A DNA stretch of 15,492 bases from Candidatus Heimdallarchaeota archaeon B3_Heim (GCA_003144275.1 NJBF01000056.1:1-15492), one strand, 5' to 3'; counted from the stretch's first letter, positions 1,759 through 14,822 are shown. Translations and numbers: made by a program. The notes: generated by a model from the sequence alone, not told the origin.

Positions 1759-3687
1759 TCAATTTTCTACAGATAATAGAATTTTTTCTTCAATGAACAG
1801 GTTTACGATATACTTAATATCGTCATACATCACATCAGGGTAAGGAATTTTAAGTAGGAGGAAGATATCTTCGACATTCATTTTCCCATTCGCCAAATTT
1901 AATAATTCCAAGACGAGTCCGCCCCAGTATTTTTTTGTCAGAGACCCAAGCCTTAATTGATTGGATTCAGAACGACTAGGATCCATTAGACGCTTAAAAG
2001 GTAGGGGCCCAATAAAATTACATTGTATAATGATTTGATTCGAAATATTTTCCATTCTTTCTTTTTCCTCAGAGTTCGTGTTCTTTTGAATAAGATGATT
2101 AAAATGCAGTTTCACCAATTTTGAAAAGTGTTCTATATCTTCCTTGAGATTACCTTCAAAATCTAGTTCTAATATACTTTTCAACCTGTTAGTCGACATT
2201 TGTGCTAGCAACTCTTTTTGTCGAAGTTGTTGAGCTTGAGATAATTCCCCTGATTTATTCAATCTGTGGTTAAGTGAATTAGCTTCCTCTATGATATCTG
2301 AAAAAACACTTGCTAATATTTCCTGCAGAAATAGCGAATTTGAGGTAGCTAAACTGTATGCAGTCACTCCCGTTATGACACCAGCACTCCGACATTCCAA
2401 TGGTTCAACTTTGTCAATACTATCAGCACTTGTATGATGATAGGGATCATCATGACCAAACATAACTCCTGGAATCGAAAAATAACTGTCATTAAAAATG
2501 AGATGATCGCTTCCACCCGCAAAGGATTGAATATCGTAATTTAATTGATAAGTCCACCCGTTTTTTGCTACCTTTTGTTTCTTAACACACTCTGAAACGT
2601 ATCTTATCATCCCTGGTAAGAATGAAGGAGTGGAGATACTAGGAGAGCTGATGGTTAATGGCGTGCCCACTTTTACAGGGGATTCTCCCACCATGTCAAG
2701 ATTAAAAACCGAGAGGATTTTCCTCCCTTCAGTATTCCGTTGTTGATCATATTCAGCTAGCCAAGGAATTGTTCCTGAAAATTCAGGAACCCACAAAAAA
2801 CGTAAGGTTCTTTTTGGTTGAGCTATTTGTCCTGTTTTAATCATCCTGTTTAAACTTAAGGCAATTTCAAGAAGCGTAGCACTCCCAGAAGCATTGTCAT
2901 TCGCGCCAGGAGAAGGATGACATAGATGAGCAATTATCACTATTTCTTCTAGTGGTCTTTCGCTCCCAATAAAAGGCGTTTCTAAGACATGTAATTTTCT
3001 TTTATCATCTGAAAAGTTTGCATCGATCTTAAAATGTAGTTTTACTTCCTTTTTTCCCCTCAAATAATTTTGTAATTCTCTAGCTTGTGCATGGGATATT
3101 GAAAAACCCGACGTAACATCTGATAAGTTCTCGTTAACAGGCCAAAATCCATCATACTGAACTGTTGTATCACCGATCTGAGCGGCTCGATTCAGATCTG
3201 GATGTAAAATTATTCCTTTAACATCATGTCTAGCGGCATACGAGAAGATTCTGCGAGGACTTGCTGTAATTAAAGCAATTTTACCCTTTGCTTTCGCATA
3301 ATCAGACGGTTTGTCTCCCTTTCCTATATCTACCAATGTTCCTTCAAAATCAGCTGCTTTGGAATGTGTTATAACGCTCATAGGATGATCAATAAAGCGG
3401 CTTAATCGTTTTTTAACAGGTTTCATGAGCCAACATTCCCCTGATTTTATATCCCAGGATATTGGACTAACCCAACCCCATTTTTCCCATTTTCCATCTG
3501 CTGGATATTCGTATATCTTTGAAAAAATACTGTTATTGGATAAAATGGCTTGAATATGCTTAGCGCTTTCGTGAAATTTCATCGATCCTTGAATTCGGTG
3601 ATATTGAGAAATTTGAGAAATCTGATCCATGATTGACTGAGTAGAAATTTCTTGGGTAAAAATATCAACTAATTGAGAAATGTGCAT
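1759..3687 (-). CDS. M28-family (DUF4910-type) Zn aminopeptidase-like protein with PA-like insert, 642 aa
   Basis: AHLCHPSPGANDNASG, WVPEFSG, NLDMVG, GGSDH and PYHHTSAD metal/catalytic motifs; LVDIGKG..SDY..AKGKIAL PA-domain signature; no signal peptide. Confidence 0.88.
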   Translation of the reverse strand: MHISQLVDIFTQEISTQSIMDQISQISQYHRIQGSMKFHESAKHIQAILSNNSIFSKIYEYPADGKWEKWGWVSPISWDIKSGECWLMKPVKKRLSRFIDHPMSVITHSKAADFEGTLVDIGKGDKPSDYAKAKGKIALITASPRRIFSYAARHDVKGIILHPDLNRAAQIGDTTVQYDGFWPVNENLSDVTSGFSISHAQARELQNYLRGKKEVKLHFKIDANFSDDKRKLHVLETPFIGSERPLEEIVIIAHLCHPSPGANDNASGSATLLEIALSLNRMIKTGQIAQPKRTLRFLWVPEFSGTIPWLAEYDQQRNTEGRKILSVFNLDMVGESPVKVGTPLTISSPSISTPSFLPGMIRYVSECVKKQKVAKNGWTYQLNYDIQSFAGGSDHLIFNDSYFSIPGVMFGHDDPYHHTSADSIDKVEPLECRSAGVITGVTAYSLATSNSLFLQEILASVFSDIIEEANSLNHRLNKSGELSQAQQLRQKELLAQMSTNRLKSILELDFEGNLKEDIEHFSKLVKLHFNHLIQKNTNSEEKERMENISNQIIIQCNFIGPLPFKRLMDPSRSESNQLRLGSLTKKYWGGLVLELLNLANGKMNVEDIFLLLKIPYPDVMYDDIKYIVNLFIEEKILLSVEN

Positions 3688-3798: not shown

Positions 3799-5028
3799 GT
3801 GAAATACTTGAGTGAAAGTTATCTACCATTACAATTGAAGGCTAAGATTCTTCATGAGAAACATGAGCAAATACCAAATATAATGAAACGATCTGAATTA
3901 GATTGCTGGTTAATATTTGTACGAGAAACTTCTACTACCCCTGACTCAGCTATGAATTTTGTTGTTGGTTCAGAAGTAGTAGCTCAATCTGCGTTCATTT
4001 TTATTGCGAATGATGAAACAGTACGGAAGATCGCGATTGTAGGAAATTTTGATGCGGATACTGAACGTAATAAAGGGATCTGGGATGAAGTAATCGGATA
4101 TGATTTAGGAATTACTGCTTCTCTTCTAGCTAAAATCAAGGAATTTGATCCTTCCAAAATTGCCTTAAATTATTCGTTAGATGATTATTCCAGTGATGGT
4201 TTGACACATGGAATGTTTTTGGTACTAGAAGAACTATTATCCGATTTCAAAGATCGCTTTGTAAGTGCTCAACCCATTGTCAACGCTATTCGAAGTATAA
4301 AGTCAGAAACTGAACTTGGACTAATTAAACAAGCATGTGAACTTACTGAGGAAATTAATGACGAAATTTCTGAGACATTAGACGTTGGTCAACGAGAAAC
4401 TGAAATTCAAGCCAAGTTCCACAAGAAAATCAATGACCGAGGATTTGGTTTCAGCTGGCAGCGGGATCAAAATCCTGCAATTGATGCTGGTAAGGACAAA
4501 GATTATGGTCATGTGTTACCTCAGGAAACCAATTTTACTGTAGAGGGACAAACACTCCATAATGATTTTGGTATTAAATATCAAGGGTATTGTTCTGATT
4601 TACAAAGGATGTGGTTTTTTGGGAAAAAACACGAATTACCTGATGAGCTAAGACATGCAATGGATACTGTACTGGAAGCGATCCAATTAGCAGCAAAAAA
4701 AATTCGCCCAGGATTACAAGGATACCAAATAGATAAACTAGCACGGGAGTATATAATTTCTCAAGGCTATGAGGAGTATAAACATGGATTAGGTCATCAA
4801 GTTGGTATTATGGCCCACGATGGAGGTTGCATGTTTGGTCCATTATGGCCTCGATACGGGAATGCACCGAAACAAGTGATAGAAGTAGGACAAGTGTTTA
4901 CAATTGAACCGAATGTCAAAACTAAGAATCACGGGATGGTCTCTATGGAAGAAATGGTTGTTGTGACGTCCACTGGATGTGAATTTTTAGTCGAGCCTCG
5001 AAAAGATTTCATTTATATTCATAAATGA
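3799..5028 (+). CDS. M24 family Xaa-Pro peptidase (prolidase/aminopeptidase P-like), 409 aa
   Basis: GTG start; pita-bread-fold metal ligands in HNDFG, YCSDLQR, HGLGH, FTIEP and SMEE. Confidence 0.93.
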   Translation: MKYLSESYLPLQLKAKILHEKHEQIPNIMKRSELDCWLIFVRETSTTPDSAMNFVVGSEVVAQSAFIFIANDETVRKIAIVGNFDADTERNKGIWDEVIGYDLGITASLLAKIKEFDPSKIALNYSLDDYSSDGLTHGMFLVLEELLSDFKDRFVSAQPIVNAIRSIKSETELGLIKQACELTEEINDEISETLDVGQRETEIQAKFHKKINDRGFGFSWQRDQNPAIDAGKDKDYGHVLPQETNFTVEGQTLHNDFGIKYQGYCSDLQRMWFFGKKHELPDELRHAMDTVLEAIQLAAKKIRPGLQGYQIDKLAREYIISQGYEEYKHGLGHQVGIMAHDGGCMFGPLWPRYGNAPKQVIEVGQVFTIEPNVKTKNHGMVSMEEMVVVTSTGCEFLVEPRKDFIYIHK

Positions 5029-5060: not shown

Positions 5061-5918
5061 ATGGATCTTGAAAATCTGGAATTAACAGATAAGGTGAGAA
5101 ATACATTACCTGGAAGTTTTATTCAGACGTCAAACGGTTATGTGCACTATCAGTTGAAGGGAGATGGAGAGCTAGTGGTCTTAGTTCATGGAATGACAAC
5201 CCCACTGTTTGTTTGGGATCCACTATTTGAGACGTTGTCAAATAATGGTTTTCGGGTCCTAAGATATGATCTATTTGGGCGGGGATATTCTGACAGGTTC
5301 CCAGGAAAGAATGATGTCGATCTTTACAATAAACAATTATATGAACTATTGACTACCCTGAGATTGGTCGACCAAAAAATAACTTTAGTGGGCTTATCCT
5401 TAGGAGGGGCGATATGTGCGAATTTTGCAATTCGCCATAGCGAGCTTATAAAAAGAATTTGTTTGATTGATCCTGTTCATCCGTCAAAACTCCCAAGAGC
5501 AATGAAATTATTACGGGTGCCAGGATTAAATATTTTACTACGCAAATTTGTGGGTCACAAGATGCTATTCGCAAGTTTGTCTGATAACTTCTACAACTAT
5601 GAAGATTTTCCTAATTTCAAAGATAATTTCAGCGAACAATTACAATTTATGGGGTATTCCAAAGCTGTTATCTCAACAATGGTTCATTATGACCTTAAAA
5701 ATTTAGATAGAATTTATAGGGCTATTGGGAAGTTGAAGGTTCCAATATGTCTATTCTGGGGAGAACAAGATACAGTTGTACCTTATGAAGCAAATGAAAA
5801 ATTACGTACCGCTATTCCAGATATTATATTTCACTCCATAAAAGAAGCGGGTCATCTATCTCATTATGAGAAGCCCGAAATTGTCAATCCGCTACTATTA
5901 GCATTTTTAGATACCTGA
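5061..5918 (+). CDS. Alpha/beta-fold serine hydrolase, 285 aa
   Basis: LVHG oxyanion motif, YDLFGRGYS, nucleophile elbow GLSLGG, WGEQD acid, AGHLSH catalytic His. Confidence 0.93.
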   Translation: MDLENLELTDKVRNTLPGSFIQTSNGYVHYQLKGDGELVVLVHGMTTPLFVWDPLFETLSNNGFRVLRYDLFGRGYSDRFPGKNDVDLYNKQLYELLTTLRLVDQKITLVGLSLGGAICANFAIRHSELIKRICLIDPVHPSKLPRAMKLLRVPGLNILLRKFVGHKMLFASLSDNFYNYEDFPNFKDNFSEQLQFMGYSKAVISTMVHYDLKNLDRIYRAIGKLKVPICLFWGEQDTVVPYEANEKLRTAIPDIIFHSIKEAGHLSHYEKPEIVNPLLLAFLDT

Positions 5919-5947: not shown

Positions 5948-7825
5948 CTAACTCATTTCAATGGCTTTTTCGATATATTCTAAGCTTTGATGTCGAAAAT
6001 AGGTATTGTACAACTGGGCATAAACACCGTTCTTCTCTATCAATTGATCATGATTTCCTTCTTCTACTATCTTACCATGGTCAAGAACAATTATTCGATC
6101 AACTTGTCGAACTGTCCATAGCCTATGTGCGATTATAATTGATGTTCTCCCTTTAATGGTCTTTTCTAATGCTTCCTGAATTCTAGTTTCAGTAAAAGGA
6201 TCGACTGACGCAGTGGCCTCATCTAACACCAATATCGATGGGTTTTCCAGTAATACTCTTGCTAAGGCTACTAGTTGTCTCTGTCCCATCGAAAGCAGGG
6301 AACCTCTTTCACGAATATTAGTATTTAATCCTTGGGGAAGATCATCTACCCAATCTGCTCCACCTGCTTGCTCCAGTGCCCAACGAACATCCTCTGAACT
6401 CGCATCGGCCCTTCCATACTTCACGTTATTTTCAAGAGTATCTCCCCAAAGAAAAGGAACTTGGTGAATGATACCAATATGTTTCCTGTACTCTTTCAAA
6501 TTGTAATCTCTAATATTTACATCATCAATTAAAATATCACCAGATTGGAACTCATAAAATCGAGCTAAAAGTTTAGCTAAGCTAGATTTCCCAGCTCCCG
6601 TATGACCAACAATAGCCAATGACTCTCCAGGTTTAATAATTAATGAAAAGCCATCGAAGACCTTAACTTCCTTCTTTGCTTTCATTTTATTATCTGATGT
6701 TTTTCCTTTGTCTAGGACCTCTTTTCCCTCAACATAGGAGAATGTTAAATCTTTAAAGATGATTTTTCCTTCTATTTTCTTGGAAACGATGGTATCGTTC
6801 TGTATGACAGCAGGTGGAGTATCTATTAGAGCAAAGATTCTTTCAGCTGCAGATAAACCAGATTGAAAACTTGGCCAAAAGGATGCGATTATAAAAAGCG
6901 GAAAGAAAAACAATTGAAGACTTTGTAGAAAAAGGTAGAAATCCGCCGCCTGAAGTTCATTATTGAGAGTTGCGGTTCCACCTACAATAACTAGTAAAGC
7001 TAAAGCTATTCCTTGGACTGTTGACATCGCTGGAAAAATGAAATTTAGTAAATAGGCTCTTTTAAGGTTAGCTTGATATGACTGTTTATTTACTGATTTA
7101 AACTTTCCAAACAGTTTGGATTCTTGTCTGAAAGTCTTGGCTATTTGGATACCAGTAAAAGATTCTTGTACAAACGCGTTTACTACCGCCAATGCCCGTT
7201 GACCAACCAGAGTTAATCTTCGGGCGGCTTTTCTGAATGAAAGTGCTATAACAAAAATAAAGGGGACGAGTAAAAGGACAACCAATGTGAGTTCCACATT
7301 TATTGTTAGCATAACTGCAAACATAATCCCTACAAGCAATATTGAAGAAATGGTTTGACTTAACTGATCAGCTGTCTGACCAAAATCCCTGGAATCTGTG
7401 TTGATGCGGGATACGATTTTACCAGTTGGATATTTGTCATAGAATGACATATCGTGATTCAAGACGGAAACATTGACATCTTTTCTTAGGTCTAATACTG
7501 CATCACCTATGACCTTGGAACTTAACGTTTGTCGGTAATAGTTGAATACCCATCCAAGGGTATTAAGAATTAATGTTATACCAATTAGAAAAATAATGTA
7601 TAGCTGTTGTTGTTCAATATCTTCAGCTATCTCGAGTTGGAGAATGGCTTCCCTAGAAATTATAGGAATTAATGCATTTACAATACTCTGTGCAAATAAA
7701 AATAATGTCACGATAATTAAGGAATTTTTATAAGGACTAAAATATGCCAATACACGACGTACTAAATCTCGATCCTTATATGATCGATCATATTCCTCTG
7801 CTCCTAATCCTATTCCAAAACCCAT
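5948..7825 (-). CDS. ABC exporter subunit (fused TMD-NBD) carrying the canonical Walker B, 625 aa
   Basis: Six-helix TMD; Walker A GHTGAGKS, signature LSMGQRQ, Walker B ILVLDEATAS, H-loop IIAHR. ATG directly follows the upstream TAG, with GGAGGT just before. Confidence 0.95.
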   Translation of the reverse strand: MGFGIGLGAEEYDRSYKDRDLVRRVLAYFSPYKNSLIIVTLFLFAQSIVNALIPIISREAILQLEIAEDIEQQQLYIIFLIGITLILNTLGWVFNYYRQTLSSKVIGDAVLDLRKDVNVSVLNHDMSFYDKYPTGKIVSRINTDSRDFGQTADQLSQTISSILLVGIMFAVMLTINVELTLVVLLLVPFIFVIALSFRKAARRLTLVGQRALAVVNAFVQESFTGIQIAKTFRQESKLFGKFKSVNKQSYQANLKRAYLLNFIFPAMSTVQGIALALLVIVGGTATLNNELQAADFYLFLQSLQLFFFPLFIIASFWPSFQSGLSAAERIFALIDTPPAVIQNDTIVSKKIEGKIIFKDLTFSYVEGKEVLDKGKTSDNKMKAKKEVKVFDGFSLIIKPGESLAIVGHTGAGKSSLAKLLARFYEFQSGDILIDDVNIRDYNLKEYRKHIGIIHQVPFLWGDTLENNVKYGRADASSEDVRWALEQAGGADWVDDLPQGLNTNIRERGSLLSMGQRQLVALARVLLENPSILVLDEATASVDPFTETRIQEALEKTIKGRTSIIIAHRLWTVRQVDRIIVLDHGKIVEEGNHDQLIEKNGVYAQLYNTYFRHQSLEYIEKAIEMS

Positions 7826-9688
7826 CTAGTTTACCTCCTCCAGAAGAGATTTTTCGTCCAAATTAAAACGTTTGACAAAGATCTTTCGATATTCTTCGGA
7901 GGTCTTCAAAAGATTTTCATGAGACCCTTTCGCAATTATTTGCCCTTTCCTCATGACAAGAATTAAATCCGCCCAACGGATCTGGCTCAATCGATGTGTA
8001 ATTAGAAAAGTTGTTCGTCCATAGAGAATTCGTCTCATAGCTTTCTGAATTTTGTCTTCTGTATCACTGTCGATTGCGCTGGTTGAATCGTCTAAAATAA
8101 GTATACGGGGATCAGTAAGAAAAGCTCGTGCGATCGCTATTCGTTGACGCTGTCCCCCACTTAGTTGGACTCCTCTTTCTCCAACTTCACTCTCATACTT
8201 TTGTGGAAGTTGTTCAATAAATTCATCAGCTTGTGCTTCTCTTGCCACACGTTGAATCTCTTCTATCTCACTCGTCCTTCCAAATGATATGTTTTCAGAT
8301 ATTTTATCAGAGAAGAGAAATGTATCTTGTTCAATATAAGAAATTTGACTTCTCAAGGAATCTAATTTCCAATCCCGTACATCTATATCATCTATTAATA
8401 TGCGTCCCTCGTTGGGGTCATATAATCGAGATAGAAACTTAGTAACTGTTGTTTTTCCGGATCCAGTTGTTCCAACGATTGCAACAGTTTGTCCTGGAGC
8501 AACCATGATATCAATCTTATTTAAGACCTTTTTATCAGATCCAGGGTAGATGAATGAGACGTTTTCAAAAACAACTTTCCCTGCGATTTTCTGTTCAATT
8601 CCTTCTAAGTTTTCATCGATCTCAGATTCTTTTGTCATAATATCGAGCAGTCGATCAGCTCCAGATATGGCCAATCGAATTAAGGCAAATACCCAAATTG
8701 ATATGAATGTTGGAAATCTGAGAGTCGAAATTAGTCCCACATATGAGATAATCGCTCCTACAGTCATTTTTCCATCGATGTACAAGATAATTCCATGACC
8801 TAGGGAAGCAGTGATTGCTAATCCGATTAGAAGAAGTGGAATATATCTAGCCATTATCCTTCCCTGATCTACAAAGGCATCTCTATAGCCTTTAGCATTA
8901 ATGAAATATCTATTTAGCTCATATTCTTCAGTTGTACTTCCTTTAACAACTTCGATTCCAGATAAGGTTTCATTGAGAACAGCATTCATCTGGCCGAATT
9001 CCGCTCTTAATCTGTTAGCCACTGGATCTAATTGTCTTGTATATCCTCTTAATGTTATGATAAAGAGAACAATAAAAATTAACGGAGTGGCTAGTAAGTC
9101 AATAGGATAGAAGATTGCTACAAACATAATGGGAATTACTAATCTCATAAAAGATTCAAATAAGAGCGATAAGCCTGGAGATACCATGAAATTCAACATT
9201 CTAACATCATTTGTCGCTCTTGCCATGATATCCCCAATACGCTGGGATTCGTGAAAGGATTGACTTTTACCCAATAAACTAACATAAAATTCTTGACGTG
9301 TGTCCCTTTCAATTCTCTGAGCCAGATTTTCCCTTGTTAAACTCATTAAGAGATTTAGTAAGGGTGATCCGACCGCGAAAATGAAGAAGAATATTGCATA
9401 GGATAACATATTAGAGCTATCACCGACAGAAAATTCGTCGATAGCCGTACCAATAAGTACCATCAAACCTGAACCGAGTAAGGATGAGATAATTGTACCA
9501 AAGAAGATTATGACAATAATAAATTTGTTTGGTCCAGCAAGAAGATGAGCAATGATCCATCTTCGAGAACTTGTCCGAACACGCGAAAATTTATCCTCTT
9601 CTGGGGAAAATTCTGTTTTTACGTTGTCATTCGCTGATTTTAATACTTCTTTCTGCATGTGACCCGATATCCTATCCTCTTCTATCAA
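7826..9688 (-). CDS. ABC exporter subunit (fused TMD-NBD) carrying the degenerate Walker B; start may be ATG 9658
   Basis: TMD; Walker A GTTGSGKT, signature LSGGQRQ, Walker B ILILDDSTSA (Asp replaces the catalytic Glu), H-loop ITHR. Confidence 0.95.
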   Translation of the reverse strand: MIEEDRISGHMQKEVLKSANDNVKTEFSPEEDKFSRVRTSSRRWIIAHLLAGPNKFIIVIIFFGTIISSLLGSGLMVLIGTAIDEFSVGDSSNMLSYAIFFFIFAVGSPLLNLLMSLTRENLAQRIERDTRQEFYVSLLGKSQSFHESQRIGDIMARATNDVRMLNFMVSPGLSLLFESFMRLVIPIMFVAIFYPIDLLATPLIFIVLFIITLRGYTRQLDPVANRLRAEFGQMNAVLNETLSGIEVVKGSTTEEYELNRYFINAKGYRDAFVDQGRIMARYIPLLLIGLAITASLGHGIILYIDGKMTVGAIISYVGLISTLRFPTFISIWVFALIRLAISGADRLLDIMTKESEIDENLEGIEQKIAGKVVFENVSFIYPGSDKKVLNKIDIMVAPGQTVAIVGTTGSGKTTVTKFLSRLYDPNEGRILIDDIDVRDWKLDSLRSQISYIEQDTFLFSDKISENISFGRTSEIEEIQRVAREAQADEFIEQLPQKYESEVGERGVQLSGGQRQRIAIARAFLTDPRILILDDSTSAIDSDTEDKIQKAMRRILYGRTTFLITHRLSQIRWADLILVMRKGQIIAKGSHENLLKTSEEYRKIFVKRFNLDEKSLLEEVN

Positions 9689-9941: not shown

Positions 9942-11015
9942 TTACGCTCTAGTGCTCTGGATAAACGGTCGGTGTTTTGCGTGTTCTATTTCCCATCTCT
10001 TTCGTTCTGAGCGTAATCGGAACAGGTCAACATCTTTGTAAATGATAGATTCCTCCTTGGGAGGAATATTTCTTTCCTGTTGTTCTCTCTCGGGGGTGAA
10101 TATAAACGAGTTTCCAATTTCTGCGATATTTGCAAAGAAACAGTAAGCAAAAATTGATCTTCTGGCGTCAAAGTGAACAGCTTTAAAATCTTCGGTAACT
10201 GGTGTAAATGCAGGGTTGAACACCAAATCTACGGGAGGATCAGCATTTTTAAGTTCTACACGTAGGTCCATATCTAAGAAGTCTCGGCAAATGACAATGG
10301 CCATTGTCCCATACTCCGTTATCCCCACAATCGTCTCTCTTTGACCCGTTTCCACGTCTATTCCTTCCTTAAACCGTCTCCCTTGGTAATGGATTATTGC
10401 AGGAATATGTTTCTCTTGTTGCCAAAGGATTCCAGATGGGCCTATTACCAAGCTAATATTTCTCTGGGTTTCTTGGTCATGGTAGGATCCTGGAATTATA
10501 TACATCTTGTAGTTGTTGGCTAGTTCAATGATTTCTTCTAACAATTGATGATAATTCAGGTCAATGGCTAATTCAGGGAAAATAATGATCTTTGCTCCCT
10601 TCTTATTCGCCGTTGCTATCAGCTCTTTTACTCTCGTTCTTACTGTGGGTACTTTTTCTTTCTTGAGAAGAAATATGCCTTCCCTCTGTTCACTATAGAA
10701 CTCGTGTAATAGATCGCCTGATGTAGATTTACCGATTTGTGCGATTGCTACTCTAAAATTCGGTTTTTCTACTGTTGAGCTATCTTTCAAGAGATTTACA
10801 TACCTTAGGCGATACTTACGTTTGGGTAGGGCTTCGAATGGTATAGCAATATCTTTTGCTCTCACGGTATACTGCTTGACTTCCTCCTCTGTTATTTCAG
10901 GTCGTTCCTTCCCGACTCGGCTGATCAATTCTTCTAATCGTGTTAACTCGAGCCGTTCGTTTAATGGAGCTTTTTGTTTGACAAGAAACTTCCATTTCTC
11001 TATCTCTGTTTCTAG
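9942..11015 (-). CDS. Carbon-nitrogen hydrolase (nitrilase-superfamily) domain with N-terminal helical linker; probably the C-terminal part of the frameshifted TPR gene
   Basis: Intact Glu-Lys-Cys triad (IIFPEL, QEKHIP, VICRDF) and RVAIAQ first strand. The frame stays open 29 codons upstream of the track's TTG (10928), back to a TAA at 11016-11018, reading LETEIEKWKFLVKQKAPLNERLELTRLEEL. Confidence 0.88.
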   Translation of the reverse strand, partial: LETEIEKWKFLVKQKAPLNERLELTRLEELISRVGKERPEITEEEVKQYTVRAKDIAIPFEALPKRKYRLRYVNLLKDSSTVEKPNFRVAIAQIGKSTSGDLLHEFYSEQREGIFLLKKEKVPTVRTRVKELIATANKKGAKIIIFPELAIDLNYHQLLEEIIELANNYKMYIIPGSYHDQETQRNISLVIGPSGILWQQEKHIPAIIHYQGRRFKEGIDVETGQRETIVGITEYGTMAIVICRDFLDMDLRVELKNADPPVDLVFNPAFTPVTEDFKAVHFDARRSIFAYCFFANIAEIGNSFIFTPEREQQERNIPPKEESIIYKDVDLFRLRSERKRWEIEHAKHRPFIQSTRA

Positions 11016-12645
11016 TTAAGGTTTTTTCACTATAAATTTTGATTGCTAAATTTCGTAGGCCTCGTTCCTCCGCAGTTACTAATGCCTGTTCTAGTAGTTT
11101 CTGTGCTGTTTGTATATCCATTTCTAGAAGTGCCAGTTTGGATTGAAGGACGTATGTTTCCGTCAGTAGGGAATGAGACGCCTGCTGTTTTGCTATGTTA
11201 TGGAGTTTTTCTGTTAGATTTTTGACTTCAATAAGTATCTCTTCTTCTCCCGTCATCTTCAGTTCAAATAACAGTAAGTCACACAGATGGATCATTGCGG
11301 TAACAGTAAGTACGTGATCAACAATCTCGTCTTCCACTACCTCAATGAGAAGTTCTTCAGCTTTCATTTTATGGCGAGTTCGTTTGTGAGATTTCAATAT
11401 GAGAGCATTAGCAATTAGGTAGCGATGTTTCACTATTTGGTTTTCTATTCTCTCAGTAATCTGTCTGAGTTTTTCCAAATGTTCCTGTGCAAGTCCAAGT
11501 TCATTACTGTCAATAGCTAGCAATACAAGCTCATACAGGACCGTAGCTGCTGAGGAATCGTTTTTTAACTCCTCATACATGGCTAAGCTTCGTTCATAGT
11601 ATTTTAATGCCCACTCAGGATTTCTTTTCTTTCTGTACAATTCACCTATGTTCGTAAGTGACATGGCAACATCCTGCTTTATCCCTAGCTCTTCATATAG
11701 CGTGAGACTTTCTTGGTAGTATTCCAATGCGAGACTGAGGTTTCCTTTCAGCTGGTAGACGTCACCTAGGTTGTTTAGGGAGAGTGCAATTCCTTTTTTA
11801 TCTTTAATTTCCTCATAAATCTTCTGTCCTTCCTGGTAATGTTCAAATGCATTGGAAAGCTCTCCCTGCATCCTATAGACGGCACCTAAATTTATGAGAG
11901 TCAACGCTATGTCTGCCTTGTTTCCTAATTCCTGTCTAATTTTATGGGTTTTTTGAAAATATTTTAATGCTTGTTCCTGATCACCTATTGAGGAATAGGT
12001 AATTCCTATATTGTTTACCAATTTGGAAATACTCTCTTTATCCTCAAGACCTTCATAGATAGGTAAACTTTGCTGATAGTATTCTAATGCACATTTGAAT
12101 TCCCCTTTTGATTGATAAATAAGTCCTAAATTATTGAGCGAATCCGCAATCCCTTTTTTATCCTTTTCCTCTTCCGAAATTACTAAACTCTGCTCAAGGA
12201 ATGCAGCTGCATCGTCAAGCTTCCCCATATACCAGCAAATTATCCCCCTATTGCGTAGTAAATTTCTTTTTCTTTTTGTAAAAGCCTTTTTCTTTCCTCC
12301 TTCATTAAGTAACTTCTCCCCTTCTTGTACTGACTGGAGACCTTCCTCCAAATTCCCTAACCGCCAAGAAATCTCTGCTTTGAGTATGAATGTGTCTATT
12401 ACCTTCAATTGGTCTATCGTTTTTCGATCTAGTGATAAGATTTCTTCCACAATTACCCGAGCTTTTTGTAACTCCCCGATTTTGGTTCTTATTCGACTTT
12501 CGAACAACATACCAGTAACTTTGCCATCTGCGGTCAGTTTTTCTCTTGAAGAAATCGTTTCCAGTATTTCAAGAGCATTTTTATACTCCCCCTGTTTCAG
12601 TAGCATTTCTACCTGTTGTAAGATCTCTTGAGGGGTATTATTCAT
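10897..12645 (-). CDS. Tetratricopeptide-repeat protein (about 40-aa repeats); last ~39 aa appear out of frame. Track start is TTG 12660; ATG 12645 preferred
   Basis: Repeats such as IADSLNNLGLIYQSKGEFKCALEYYQQSLPIYEGLEDKES and IALSLNNLGDVYQLKGNLSLALEYYQESLTLYEELGIKQD. After ...IYSEKTL the reading becomes non-helical (TRNRDREMEVSCQ...) while the +1 frame continues as an amphipathic helix. Confidence 0.9.
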   Translation of the reverse strand: MNNTPQEILQQVEMLLKQGEYKNALEILETISSREKLTADGKVTGMLFESRIRTKIGELQKARVIVEEILSLDRKTIDQLKVIDTFILKAEISWRLGNLEEGLQSVQEGEKLLNEGGKKKAFTKRKRNLLRNRGIICWYMGKLDDAAAFLEQSLVISEEEKDKKGIADSLNNLGLIYQSKGEFKCALEYYQQSLPIYEGLEDKESISKLVNNIGITYSSIGDQEQALKYFQKTHKIRQELGNKADIALTLINLGAVYRMQGELSNAFEHYQEGQKIYEEIKDKKGIALSLNNLGDVYQLKGNLSLALEYYQESLTLYEELGIKQDVAMSLTNIGELYRKKRNPEWALKYYERSLAMYEELKNDSSAATVLYELVLLAIDSNELGLAQEHLEKLRQITERIENQIVKHRYLIANALILKSHKRTRHKMKAEELLIEVVEDEIVDHVLTVTAMIHLCDLLLFELKMTGEEEILIEVKNLTEKLHNIAKQQASHSLLTETYVLQSKLALLEMDIQTAQKLLEQALVTAEERGLRNLAIKIYSEKTLTRNRDREMEVSCQTKSSIKRTARVNTIRRIDQPSREGTT

Positions 12646-12724
12646 GTTTATTTCTTCCAAAACTTTCCGACAAGTATTTTACAGAGGAAGTGATTTAGTA
12701 CAGGTTTTTTTATCAATAGATAAG

Positions 12725-13204
12725 TCAGATTTTTCCATCTTTCGCCATGGCTAGACATTTTCTCATGGTATAGTTCAAAAAAATATCACAGGTTTGTTTC
12801 CATCCTTTTTGTATCATCCATTCTGATATCTCTTCCCCTTTTCGAAAATCGACCTTATTTAGAATTTTACAGTCTGTGCTTCCAAATTTTGTTAAAAATT
12901 CGGTATATAGTTCATTTACTGCCTGAATGGCTTTCTCTCTTTCATCATCATTTTCTTCTGGTATTCCTTTTGAATTTCGTCCACATTGAAGACCGATTCC
13001 GATAGTACTCCCAATTAGAAGGCCACACGTTGTAGTTCCTGATCCAATCGCTCCTAAATACCCTGCCGTTGCCCAAGAATTAGCATCGTATGGTAAATCC
13101 CATAATTCTAGCAATGCTTGAAGTGAGGCTTCTCCACACGTATATCGGTGCATCCTTTTGTATGCTCTTGTTAGAATATTATCAAAATTCTTTTGTTCAT
13201 CCAT
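12725..13204 (-). CDS. C_GCAxxG_C_C family putative redox-active protein, 159 aa
   Basis: YTCGEASLQA, AGYLGAIG...TTCGLLIG, FGSTDCK and TCDIF match the Cys pattern of this family. Confidence 0.85.
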   Translation of the reverse strand: MDEQKNFDNILTRAYKRMHRYTCGEASLQALLELWDLPYDANSWATAGYLGAIGSGTTTCGLLIGSTIGIGLQCGRNSKGIPEENDDEREKAIQAVNELYTEFLTKFGSTDCKILNKVDFRKGEEISEWMIQKGWKQTCDIFLNYTMRKCLAMAKDGKI

Positions 13205-13810: not shown

Positions 13811-14578
13811 TTATTTCTGACCTATGAATATCCCTAAATTTAAAAACTGTGTATGTGTTTCTGACTGCCATTTCTTGAAATTTGACTTAGATAATAAAGT
13901 CTCCCAGAAATTTTTTGTTTTCCAAACAAATGCAAAATATAATAGTGCTAAATATAATCTTACATCCCTTAATATTTCAATGCTTACAAATTTTCCTCCT
14001 GGTTTCAGTACACGATGAATTTCATTTAATACAATTAATTTTTCTTTATCATCATGTATTTCATGAAGTACTGAACCTGCGGTAACTAAATCAAATGCAT
14101 TATCTGGGAATGGAATGTCGAGAACATTACCGTACTTAAATTCAACCTTATCTCGTACCCCTTCAATTTCTGCATTGTAATATGCTGTATCAGGGGAGCT
14201 ACCACTAACTCCACTGTAAATATCTATTCCCACAACATTTCCAGACACTAAATGTTTTGCTATATTGATGGAAACTCTTCCTGTACCACATCCTATATCT
14301 AGAACCTGCTCATCTCCTCTAAAATCTTTCAAAATATGTTTCCAAACATCTTTAATAGGATTAGTTCGAAGTATAGAATGATAGAGAGGAATATACAAAG
14401 CTCCGATATAAAGGCCAGTAATAGCGATAGGAAAAATTAACATGAAAATAATACTCTTTAAAGGATCTTCGATAAAAAAGGTAAACATCACGACTATTAA
14501 TCCTATTAAACCAACAATTGATATTCCAATAAAATATTTGATCGCAGTATAACCATAATTAGGTTTTTCAGAATTCAT
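13811..14578 (-). CDS. Class I SAM-dependent methyltransferase with two N-terminal TM helices, about 255 aa (track start 14626; ATG 14578 preferred)
   Basis: Motif I VLDIGCGTGR, VVGIDIY, GNVLDIPFPDNAFDLV, RVLKPGG; hydrophobic N-terminus; GGAG 9 nt before ATG 14578, which overlaps the end of the AbrB gene. Confidence 0.92.
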   Translation of the reverse strand: MNSEKPNYGYTAIKYFIGISIVGLIGLIVVMFTFFIEDPLKSIIFMLIFPIAITGLYIGALYIPLYHSILRTNPIKDVWKHILKDFRGDEQVLDIGCGTGRVSINIAKHLVSGNVVGIDIYSGVSGSSPDTAYYNAEIEGVRDKVEFKYGNVLDIPFPDNAFDLVTAGSVLHEIHDDKEKLIVLNEIHRVLKPGGKFVSIEILRDVRLYLALLYFAFVWKTKNFWETLLSKSNFKKWQSETHTQFLNLGIFIGQK

Positions 14579-14822
14579 TATTTTTTTCTCCTTGTTCATC
14601 CTGGTTTTCTCCCCCAAGAGCTCCAAGAGCTTTTAGAGCATAAGTTTTCAATCCTGATACCTTTGTGATAGCTATTCCTTTGTTAATATCTCCAGCGACA
14701 AACAATATATCACCTGAGCGTATATCGAATGTTTTTCTAGCATTTTTTGGAATAACGATCTGCCCACGCTCCCCAACTTTTACTGTTCCGAATATATACT
14801 TTCCTTTAGCAATTTCAGCCAT
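14568..14822 (-). CDS. AbrB/MazE/SpoVT-family DNA-binding protein, about 84 aa (alternative start ATG 14837)
   Basis: GTVKVGERGQIVIPKNARKTFDIRSGDILFV is the swapped-hairpin signature. Confidence 0.92.
   Translation of the reverse strand: MAEIAKGKYIFGTVKVGERGQIVIPKNARKTFDIRSGDILFVAGDINKGIAITKVSGLKTYALKALGALGGENQDEQGEKNNEF

Follow-up and report, generated by a model that had tools for sequence, protein, structure and literature searches.

The analysed window, a stretch of 15,492 nucleotides (nt) from Candidatus Heimdallarchaeota archaeon B3_Heim (GCA_003144275.1, NJBF01000056.1:1-15492), carries on its minus strand (9942..12645) a gene for a tetratricopeptide repeat (TPR) protein ending in a carbon–nitrogen (CN) hydrolase of the nitrilase fold, referred to as TPR-CN hydrolase in the following. 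The whole gene starts with the ATG at 12645, terminates with the stop codon at 9942-9944, and is colinear with homologs of 900 amino acids (aa; P0003 and P0005); its 2704 nt comprise 900 codons, the stop codon, and one extra base. Two open reading frames (ORFs) are present, namely ORF1 (10897..12660, minus), most likely starting at the ATG at 12645, where the homologs also begin, and ORF2 (9942..10928, minus), which overlaps ORF1 and is located in the +1 frame. Joining of the frames yields 543 aa of TPR and 357 aa of linker and CN hydrolase, amounting to 900 aa. An earlier note on this DNA, based on the sequence alone, had proposed that the two joined frames represent a protein of about 900 aa in the order TPR array, linker, and CN hydrolase, and the ORFs, the Pfam assignments, and the homologs agree on this arrangement.

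Along the gene, the TPR scaffold (543 aa, frame 1; 11017..12645, minus; Pfam TPR_12, TPR_1, and TPR_MalT) is followed by a single extra A (tta-A-cta; 11016..11017, minus), causing a +1 shift. ORF1 continues beyond this position with an out-of-frame tail of 39 codons and a stop codon (10897..11016, minus), representing a frameshift product for which the homologs possess no counterpart. The helical linker follows in frame 2 (LETEIEKW...; 10824..11015, minus) and is kept only in the forms of approximately 900 aa, corresponding to helices 548-596 of P0003; the linker string LETEIEKWKFLVKQKAPLNERLELTRLEEL quoted in the earlier note was found exactly at 10926-11015 in the frame of ORF2. The nitrilase-fold CN-hydrolase module itself (293 aa; 9945..10823, minus) was delimited by Pfam, alignment, structural model, and Foldseek results, and extends to the C-terminal FIQSTRA. 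The 900-aa homologs match the CN part at 87% identity. A chance origin of this architecture is far excluded by 738 longer homologs and a Foldseek match to the nitrilase superfamily with E=3.6e-12. Genes of this type are annotated merely as ‘tetratricopeptide repeat protein’, and the assembly splits the gene in the window wrongly into two.

To trace the origin of the split, Logan contigs from four metagenome runs were aligned to positions 10400-11600, one of these runs (X2) being without a contig over 10728-11055. All three contigs spanning the site, obtained from three different studies, lack one letter at 11016 and show only one or two other mismatches to the window; the extra A was found in none of the contigs from the four runs; at this position, the depth is about 3x and contigs break nearby. 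At the junction, homologs read ...IYSEKTL-LETQIEKW..., and the corresponding bases of the window are agt gaa aaa acc tta (a) cta gaa. Among orthologues resolved to a genome, the closest one (in G020, 87% identity) features TTA CTC at this site within a single open frame of 905 codons and conserved synteny. Furthermore, matches in 41 relatives and 201 Asgard genomes represent stop-free frames, mostly of 827-1297 aa, besides fragments at contig ends. Separate genes for the two parts, which the earlier note had named as an outcome that would speak against a fusion, were not observed, since each genomic relative encodes one open frame, with a length of about 840-1290 aa; moreover, intact single-frame copies were recovered from Asgard genomes. 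The window copy itself retains all family-invariant residues. Because the contigs from other studies lack the base and the relatives possess a single ORF, we conclude that the split stems either from an error in the assembly or from a recent mutation private to this genome.

Two further explanations of the split were rejected. A programmed +1 frameshift does not apply, as no homolog is shifted and near-identical contigs simply lack the base; UUA-A-CUA corresponds to no slippery motif known to us. Two genuine overlapping genes are likewise not in agreement with unshifted homologs, contigs without the base, and the tail of ORF1 that finds no match. A real recent pseudogene, or else a truncated TPR protein of 582 aa (ATG 12645) accompanied by a possibly separately started enzyme, is considered quite improbable. 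The extra A is indeed present in the given assembly; the site is not a long homopolymer, so that the usual homopolymer type of sequencing error does not readily suggest itself; translation of ORF2 could in principle begin with the TTG at 10928; and TPR-only proteins of about 600 aa as well as stand-alone CN modules occur elsewhere. However, the three spanning contigs are without the base while differing at only one or two other positions, and no contig contains it; indel errors typically arise in regions of such low depth (about 3x) with contig breaks nearby; apart from the shift, the two halves are undamaged and keep all invariant residues; the 39-codon tail of ORF1 finds no match in homologs; and no relative carries a split here.

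ORF1 was identified as a TPR array by Pfam (TPR_12 with E=4.4e-58, and the MalT-like TPR region). The AlphaFold2 model of P0003, which is 87% identical to the window protein (predicted local distance difference test, pLDDT, of 81), comprises 27 helices in residues 4-546 forming a TPR superhelix, followed by the linker helices 548-596 and then the CN domain. Residues 1-546 are read as a superhelix with about 13 TPR repeats, of a type that binds peptides or proteins. The nearest Foldseek matches of the full-length model were the peptide-binding TPRs of LGN/Pins and Rap, with SPY and OGT also among the matches. Family and topology scans of the window protein detected no nucleoside triphosphatase (NTPase), transmembrane segment, or signal peptide. 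The best explanation for the locus is that it encodes one cytosolic protein of 900 aa. Among orthologues, the TPR part is colinear and shows 42-77% identity. Tandem paralogs diverge more in the TPR part (58% identity) than in the CN part (71%); even so, the TPR part is far from being hypervariable.

The enzyme module is recognized by the Pfam model CN_hydrolase (PF00795) on ORF2 with 34.9 bits (35.1 in the genome scan) at a cut-off of 23.2, representing a weak but significant match. The conserved unit consists of the last approximately 293 residues (36-328 of P0002) and ends at the protein C-terminus in almost every architecture, with a mean column identity of 72% over 36 members of differing architectures. 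Its residues E119, K173, and C214 (numbering of P0002) are invariant in 36 of 36 diverse members. In the alignment with the Pyrococcus nitrilase 3IVZ, they coincide with its catalytic motifs, the first of which marks the position of the catalytic Glu. In the window, the catalytic Glu (FPE) is encoded at 10572-10574, the catalytic Lys (QEKHIP) at 10410-10412, and the Cys nucleophile (ICRDF) at 10287-10289, all on the minus strand, so that the Glu-Lys-Cys triad noticed earlier is intact at the codon level and family-invariant at the residue level. The canonical position of the second Glu falls on a variable column, while four to six residues later an invariant Glu is found in the family alignment (KEGI; E188; 10365..10367, minus). 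E188 is only a candidate fourth catalytic residue, possibly replacing the canonical second Glu, as suggested by the alignment.

The structure prediction proposed in the earlier note yielded a nitrilase fold and, as a predicted assembly, the canonical nitrilase dimer. The AlphaFold2 model of the module reached a pLDDT of 71.6 and a predicted template modelling score (pTM) of 0.75, with residues 243-290 at low confidence. All of the best 50 Foldseek matches are nitrilase-superfamily chains, the top match being Nit2 (2w1v; E=3.6e-12, TMt 0.68), followed by archaeal amidase, N-carbamoylputrescine amidase (CPA), and D-carbamoylase at 15-22% identity, with E values of about 1e-11 to 1e-12 for Nit2, archaeal amidase, and CPA; no single nitrilase branch was nearest in this fold search. 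Searches of solved structures by sequence, using a single protein or a profile, returned remote housekeeping enzymes only (E of 1.9e-4 or worse) and no chain of DRT1, the type 1 defence-associated reverse transcriptase system. By profile, predicted fold, and triad, the module is a genuine, if divergent, nitrilase-superfamily enzyme.

For the module, a homodimer was predicted with an interface score (ipSAE) of 0.59 compared to 0.00 for the best control, the runs sharing at least 36% of contacts and the partner reaching a pLDDT of at least 81. In the calibration, this mark was reached by 20 out of 30 proteins solved as homo-pairs and by 1 out of 23 solved as single chains. The pass may reflect the likeness of the model to solved nitrilase dimers. 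The predicted interface (residues 218-228 and 246-259 of P0002; 10152..10277, minus) was deduced from the complex prediction together with invariant columns, and is formed by the helices following the catalytic Cys, which represent the most invariant stretch of the module. The invariant C-terminal tail FIQSTR(A) (9945..9965, minus), being the module end in nearly all architectures, was examined as a possible DRT1-like lid; its FIQSTR residues have a pLDDT below 50 and lie outside the confident contacts of the dimer model.

To place the module within the nitrilase superfamily, profile scores were compared. The best profile was the PADLOC model CARF_nitrilase (PDLC01989) with 51 bits (E=1.5e-14), followed by the PADLOC models RT_UG5-nitrilase (E=2.7e-11) and RTasNitrilase (E=3.1e-11) with 41 bits each, RT denoting reverse transcriptase. 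Weaker matches were obtained for Pfam CN_hydrolase (35 bits, 1.3e-8) and for the housekeeping models of NCBIfam (26 bits or less, at best 5e-6), the latter remaining below their equivalog cut-offs of 133-500 (aguB with 26 vs. 410, nitrile_Arch with 20.9 vs. 500, and lnt with 15.2 vs. 132.9). A HMMER search run exhaustively over 1.84 billion representatives recovered a tight family with 47 members at E<=1e-30, followed by a steep drop to about 31% identity. Just past this score gap, HEAT-repeat-CN, CN-nSTAND3-PUA, CN-aldolase, and tandem-CN proteins were found. The CN domains of these next relatives match the RT- and CARF-nitrilase models at 60 to 143 bits, and the nSTAND3-CN relative also matches the PADLOC candidate systems PDC-S73 and mad8. 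The source genome holds six other CN hydrolases, scoring 71-210 bits on Pfam.

A quick IQ-TREE phylogeny was calculated for 69 domains, in which the rows outside the family are the best matches of the query itself and only six housekeeping sequences root the tree; a Pseudoalteromonas plasmid protein scoring 1440 bits to the Drt1a model served as the Drt1a reference. A branch supported at 96% by the Shimodaira–Hasegawa-like approximate likelihood ratio test (SH-aLRT) parts the six CN hydrolases of the source genome from the family, its HEAT-CN sisters (90%), and Drt1a. Within the non-housekeeping part, Drt1a represents a long branch located elsewhere, and the TPR-CN family forms its own tight clade. 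Hence, a grouping of the domain with housekeeping Nit/omega-amidases, considered in the earlier note as an outcome against its proposal, was found neither in the scores of the hidden Markov models (HMMs) nor, provisionally, in the tree. The results suggest that the module may share a broad clade with anti-phage effector nitrilases (the RT-nitrilases of DRT1 and UG5, and CARF-nitrilase); this placement is suggestive and not proven, because the rows of the tree are biased and the housekeeping sequences number only six.

Detailed analysis of the homologs also revealed that the module occurs on other front parts and the scaffold with other end modules. At 60-66% identity, the CN module forms the end of TPR proteins of approximately 900 aa, of proteins of about 1275-1400 aa with divergent TPR-like N-termini (arrays of about 950 aa), and of a FIST protein, and the TPR link to the nitrilase module is recurrent among the homologs. 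P0101 (1586 aa) and P0094 (1374 aa) are built like receptors: a signal peptide is followed by a clostripain domain (Peptidase_C11) outside the cell, by Ig-like and InlB B-repeat domains, and by one transmembrane helix, which leads into a cytosolic CN module. P0057 and its relatives (L016:550-3852), bacterial proteins of about 1090 aa carrying a Zixibacteria label, contain the CN module inserted after the Walker-A motif of an AAA_16 STAND NTPase, which continues into TPR and an alpha/beta hydrolase; an enzyme module residing inside an NTPase domain is an unusual arrangement. P0148 (L032:1075-2073) represents a stand-alone CN copy of 332 aa encoded beside DUF433/PIN, MNT-like nucleotidyltransferase, and Nmad3 genes, a toxin-antitoxin-like neighbourhood.

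The survey of C-terminal domains proposed in the earlier note was carried out by searches with the specific C-terminal part of the window TPR as query: the same scaffold (44-59% identity) ends in TIR_2 (P0316 and P0341), in a Ser/Thr protein kinase (P0276), or in a KaiC-like ATPase (P0290). P0272 represents a scaffold of 607 aa without an end module, whose gene is followed by one for a small GTPase of the Arf/Ras/Roc type in two Hodarchaeales assemblies (L030:2625-5654 and L031:4001-7030). A match of PF04297 (‘HTH’) on TPR paralogs was discarded as spurious, as it falls within the TPR region.

To evaluate the prevalence of the module, 201 Asgard genomes were sampled, of which 51 carry it (26 out of the 85 high-quality genomes). 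The distribution is patchy, covering 4 out of 27 families and 9 out of 59 genera with one to eight copies per genome, and the module was always fused in the Asgard genomes searched. Within the genus of the window, 14 out of 21 genomes carry the module, and congeners differ in copy number between 0 and 8. The copies are often arranged in tandem, with arrays comprising two to four paralogs in other Asgard genomes (G212:C1:157695-170593; G148:C33:148257-157122; L017:2077-8662).

Regarding the neighbourhood, no partner gene recurs across the loci examined. In the window, a block composed of a pair of fused ATP-binding cassette (ABC) exporter genes (5948-9688, minus), an alpha/beta hydrolase gene (5061-5918, plus), an M24 peptidase gene (3799-5028, plus), and an M28 peptidase gene (1759-3687, minus) adjoins the TPR-CN gene, and this block recurs in two relatives beside the TPR-CN orthologue, namely in G020:C188 and at the P0006 locus. 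In both relatives, inserted genes set the block apart from the orthologue: an M28 peptidase gene in G020, and a metallo-beta-lactamase-fold gene together with a gene for a protein of 213 aa at the P0006 locus. Upstream of the TPR-CN gene and on the same strand, a gene for a C_GCAxxG_C_C redox protein (12725-13204, minus) is located at a distance of 79 nt, with an S-adenosylmethionine (SAM) methyltransferase gene (13811-14626, minus) farther upstream; this arrangement is not conserved beside the orthologues examined. At the window edge (1-262, minus), an open-ended ORF of 87 codons was noticed.

Considering the observed architecture, conservation, clade affinity, and modularity, the TPR-CN hydrolase is proposed to be a single-chain sensor–effector, probably serving defence against viruses or in other conflicts, a reading to which we assign a probability of roughly one half. 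We infer gating by the TPR array, activation by assembly, and a role in conflict or defence. In this proposal, the TPR groove would bind a trigger, probably a peptide or protein, and trigger binding would lead to assembly or release of the CN modules, letting them pair. Nitrilase-superfamily enzymes work as dimers or higher oligomers, and pairing would occur via the conserved helix–helix surface, as needed for activity in the superfamily. Once active, the nitrilase would act on a conserved molecule of the cell by hydrolysing an amide. The earlier note had suggested a TPR-gated amidase or deamidase for signalling, N-terminal modification of proteins, or defence; its sensor–effector part gains from the recurrent TPR link and the defence-type affinity, while an N-terminal amidation of the Nta1 kind received no specific support. 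More tentatively, the family may belong to an undescribed, large Asgard class of NTPase-less innate-immune receptors, in which the TPR array would sense a viral or cellular peptide and nitrilase, TIR, kinase, and KaiC-like modules would be interchangeable. The nitrilase cassette, which is unusually well conserved and shared with STAND, FIST, and transmembrane receptors, would then kill the cell or halt its growth through deamidation of some amide-bearing molecule that is conserved universally.

Several observations weigh against a defence role. The inspected loci, including the one in the window, are surrounded by ordinary genes for metabolism and transport and are not located in recognizable defence islands, and the synteny across species at 80-87% identity looks like vertical inheritance. 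Compared to what immune sensors, as fast-evolving proteins, usually show, the conservation of the CN module (mean column identity of 72%) and of the TPR part is much higher. Moreover, the 900-aa form contains no NTPase switch, the kinase and KaiC-like ends on the same scaffold fit general signalling equally well, and the bias of the tree limits the clade affinity on which the proposal draws.

Some of these points are shared by two other explanations of the function. The protein could be a substrate-recruiting protein amidase resembling OGT and SPINDLY, the TPR arm capturing proteins whose Gln or Asn side chains or N-termini would be deamidated for regulation or quality control. Protein N-terminal amidases do occur in the nitrilase superfamily, the Foldseek matches include SPY and OGT (TPR array plus catalytic domain) as well as LGN and Rap, a conserved client would account for the good conservation and colinearity of the TPR part, and both the ordinary genomic context and the vertical synteny would be in agreement with such a function. 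Nevertheless, we regard this explanation as unlikely, given that the CN module also resides on FIST, clostripain-transmembrane, and STAND fronts, which are unable to recruit cytosolic proteins in this manner, and that the scaffold also carries TIR, whose known substrates are small molecules. The nearest HMMs of the CN module are those of effector nitrilases and not Nta1-like or housekeeping ones, and a patchy, multi-copy, and tandem spread is unusual for a housekeeping modifier. A non-immune signalling output, in which the CN module, as the output domain of one-component-like sensors, would make or destroy a small amide signal or metabolite when TPR, FIST, or extracellular domains perceive a cue from the environment or the cell, appears similarly doubtful. 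The receptor-like forms with FIST or a transmembrane helix, the kinase and KaiC-like ends of the scaffold, the very high conservation of the module, which would suit an enzyme acting on a single fixed substrate, and loci without defence-island context are all consistent with it. On the other hand, the HMM and tree affinity to defence-linked nitrilases, TIR as an alternative end module, the STAND fusions, and the PDC-S73 and mad8 matches of the nSTAND3-CN relative point away from such an output, as do the variation from 0 to 8 copies among congeners, the tandem arrays, and the stand-alone module beside PIN/DUF433 and MNT-like genes.

Compared to known systems, the proposed sensor–effector resembles several without belonging to any of them. 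In DRT1, the nitrilase represents the effector, its tetrameric assembly is thought to activate it, and its substrate is unknown (PMC13275509); defence by UG5/DRT11 requires the nitrilase Cys (PMC13436386), and antiviral protection depending on this residue has been shown for DRT1 as well. Both share with the TPR-CN hydrolase a C-terminal nitrilase with intact Cys placed after alpha-helical repeats in one large polypeptide, and a conserved extreme C-terminus, and the window module matches the PADLOC RT-nitrilase models. Oligomerization of the nitrilase domain is central in DRT1 (PMC13275509) and is predicted for TPR-CN. In contrast to DRT1 and UG5, TPR-CN is archaeal and remote in sequence, employs a TPR array as the sensor, and is without a reverse transcriptase, DNA adduct chemistry, or a small transmembrane partner gene. 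CARF-nitrilase, a candidate effector associated with type III CRISPR, is alike in that a ligand-sensing domain is fused to a nitrilase, but the window protein contains no CARF domain and is without CRISPR context; to our knowledge, CARF-nitrilase is itself uncharacterized, and the literature search returned no functional paper on it. As neither RT nor CARF was matched in the window protein or its neighbours, TPR-CN is not a member of a DRT or CARF system.

STAND/Avs and TPR-TIR sensors likewise combine a TPR sensor array with an interchangeable effector (CN, TIR_2, Pkinase, or KaiC-like in the present family), and some STAND proteins (AAA_16 and nSTAND3) contain modules related to the one in the window. 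They differ from the 900-aa form, in which an NTPase (NOD) is absent, the TPR helices begin at residue 4, and the effector is located C-terminal to the repeats. Housekeeping enzymes (Nit2/omega-amidase, PH0642, N-carbamoylputrescine amidase, beta-ureidopropionase, and NadE glutaminase) share the alpha-beta-beta-alpha fold and the Glu-Lys-Cys triad, but identities amount to 15-22%, sequence E values to about 1e-4 or worse, and scores remain below the equivalog cut-offs; moreover, the module resides on a 600-aa scaffold with patchy, multi-copy occurrence, whereas a housekeeping enzyme would be expected as a stand-alone protein of about 260-320 aa, or in the fixed NadE or Lnt architecture, and as a widespread single-copy gene. 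OGT and SPINDLY also place an enzyme domain after a long TPR superhelix, but this domain differs entirely in fold and chemistry, so that the analogy concerns the layout only. The earlier statement that no characterized protein with a TPR-nitrilase architecture is known agrees with the literature search, in which neither the architecture nor the family, Asgard included, was found described; given its incomplete coverage, this represents weak evidence of novelty.

Nitrilase effectors have lately entered anti-phage immunity via DRT1 and UG5. The TPR-CN family features the same kind of module in a simpler setting, consisting of a repeat scaffold and an enzyme, with no reverse transcriptase and no DNA adducts. 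As the module is highly conserved and amenable on its own, it may be the easiest route to the chemistry of nitrilase effectors, and, if true, the tentative NTPase-less receptor class would point to the substrate of the DRT1 and UG5 nitrilases. Asgard archaea are the closest prokaryotic kin of eukaryotes, and the expansion of the family among them, together with the occurrence of TIR and kinase modules on the same scaffold, therefore bears on the modular receptor–effector organization in this lineage.

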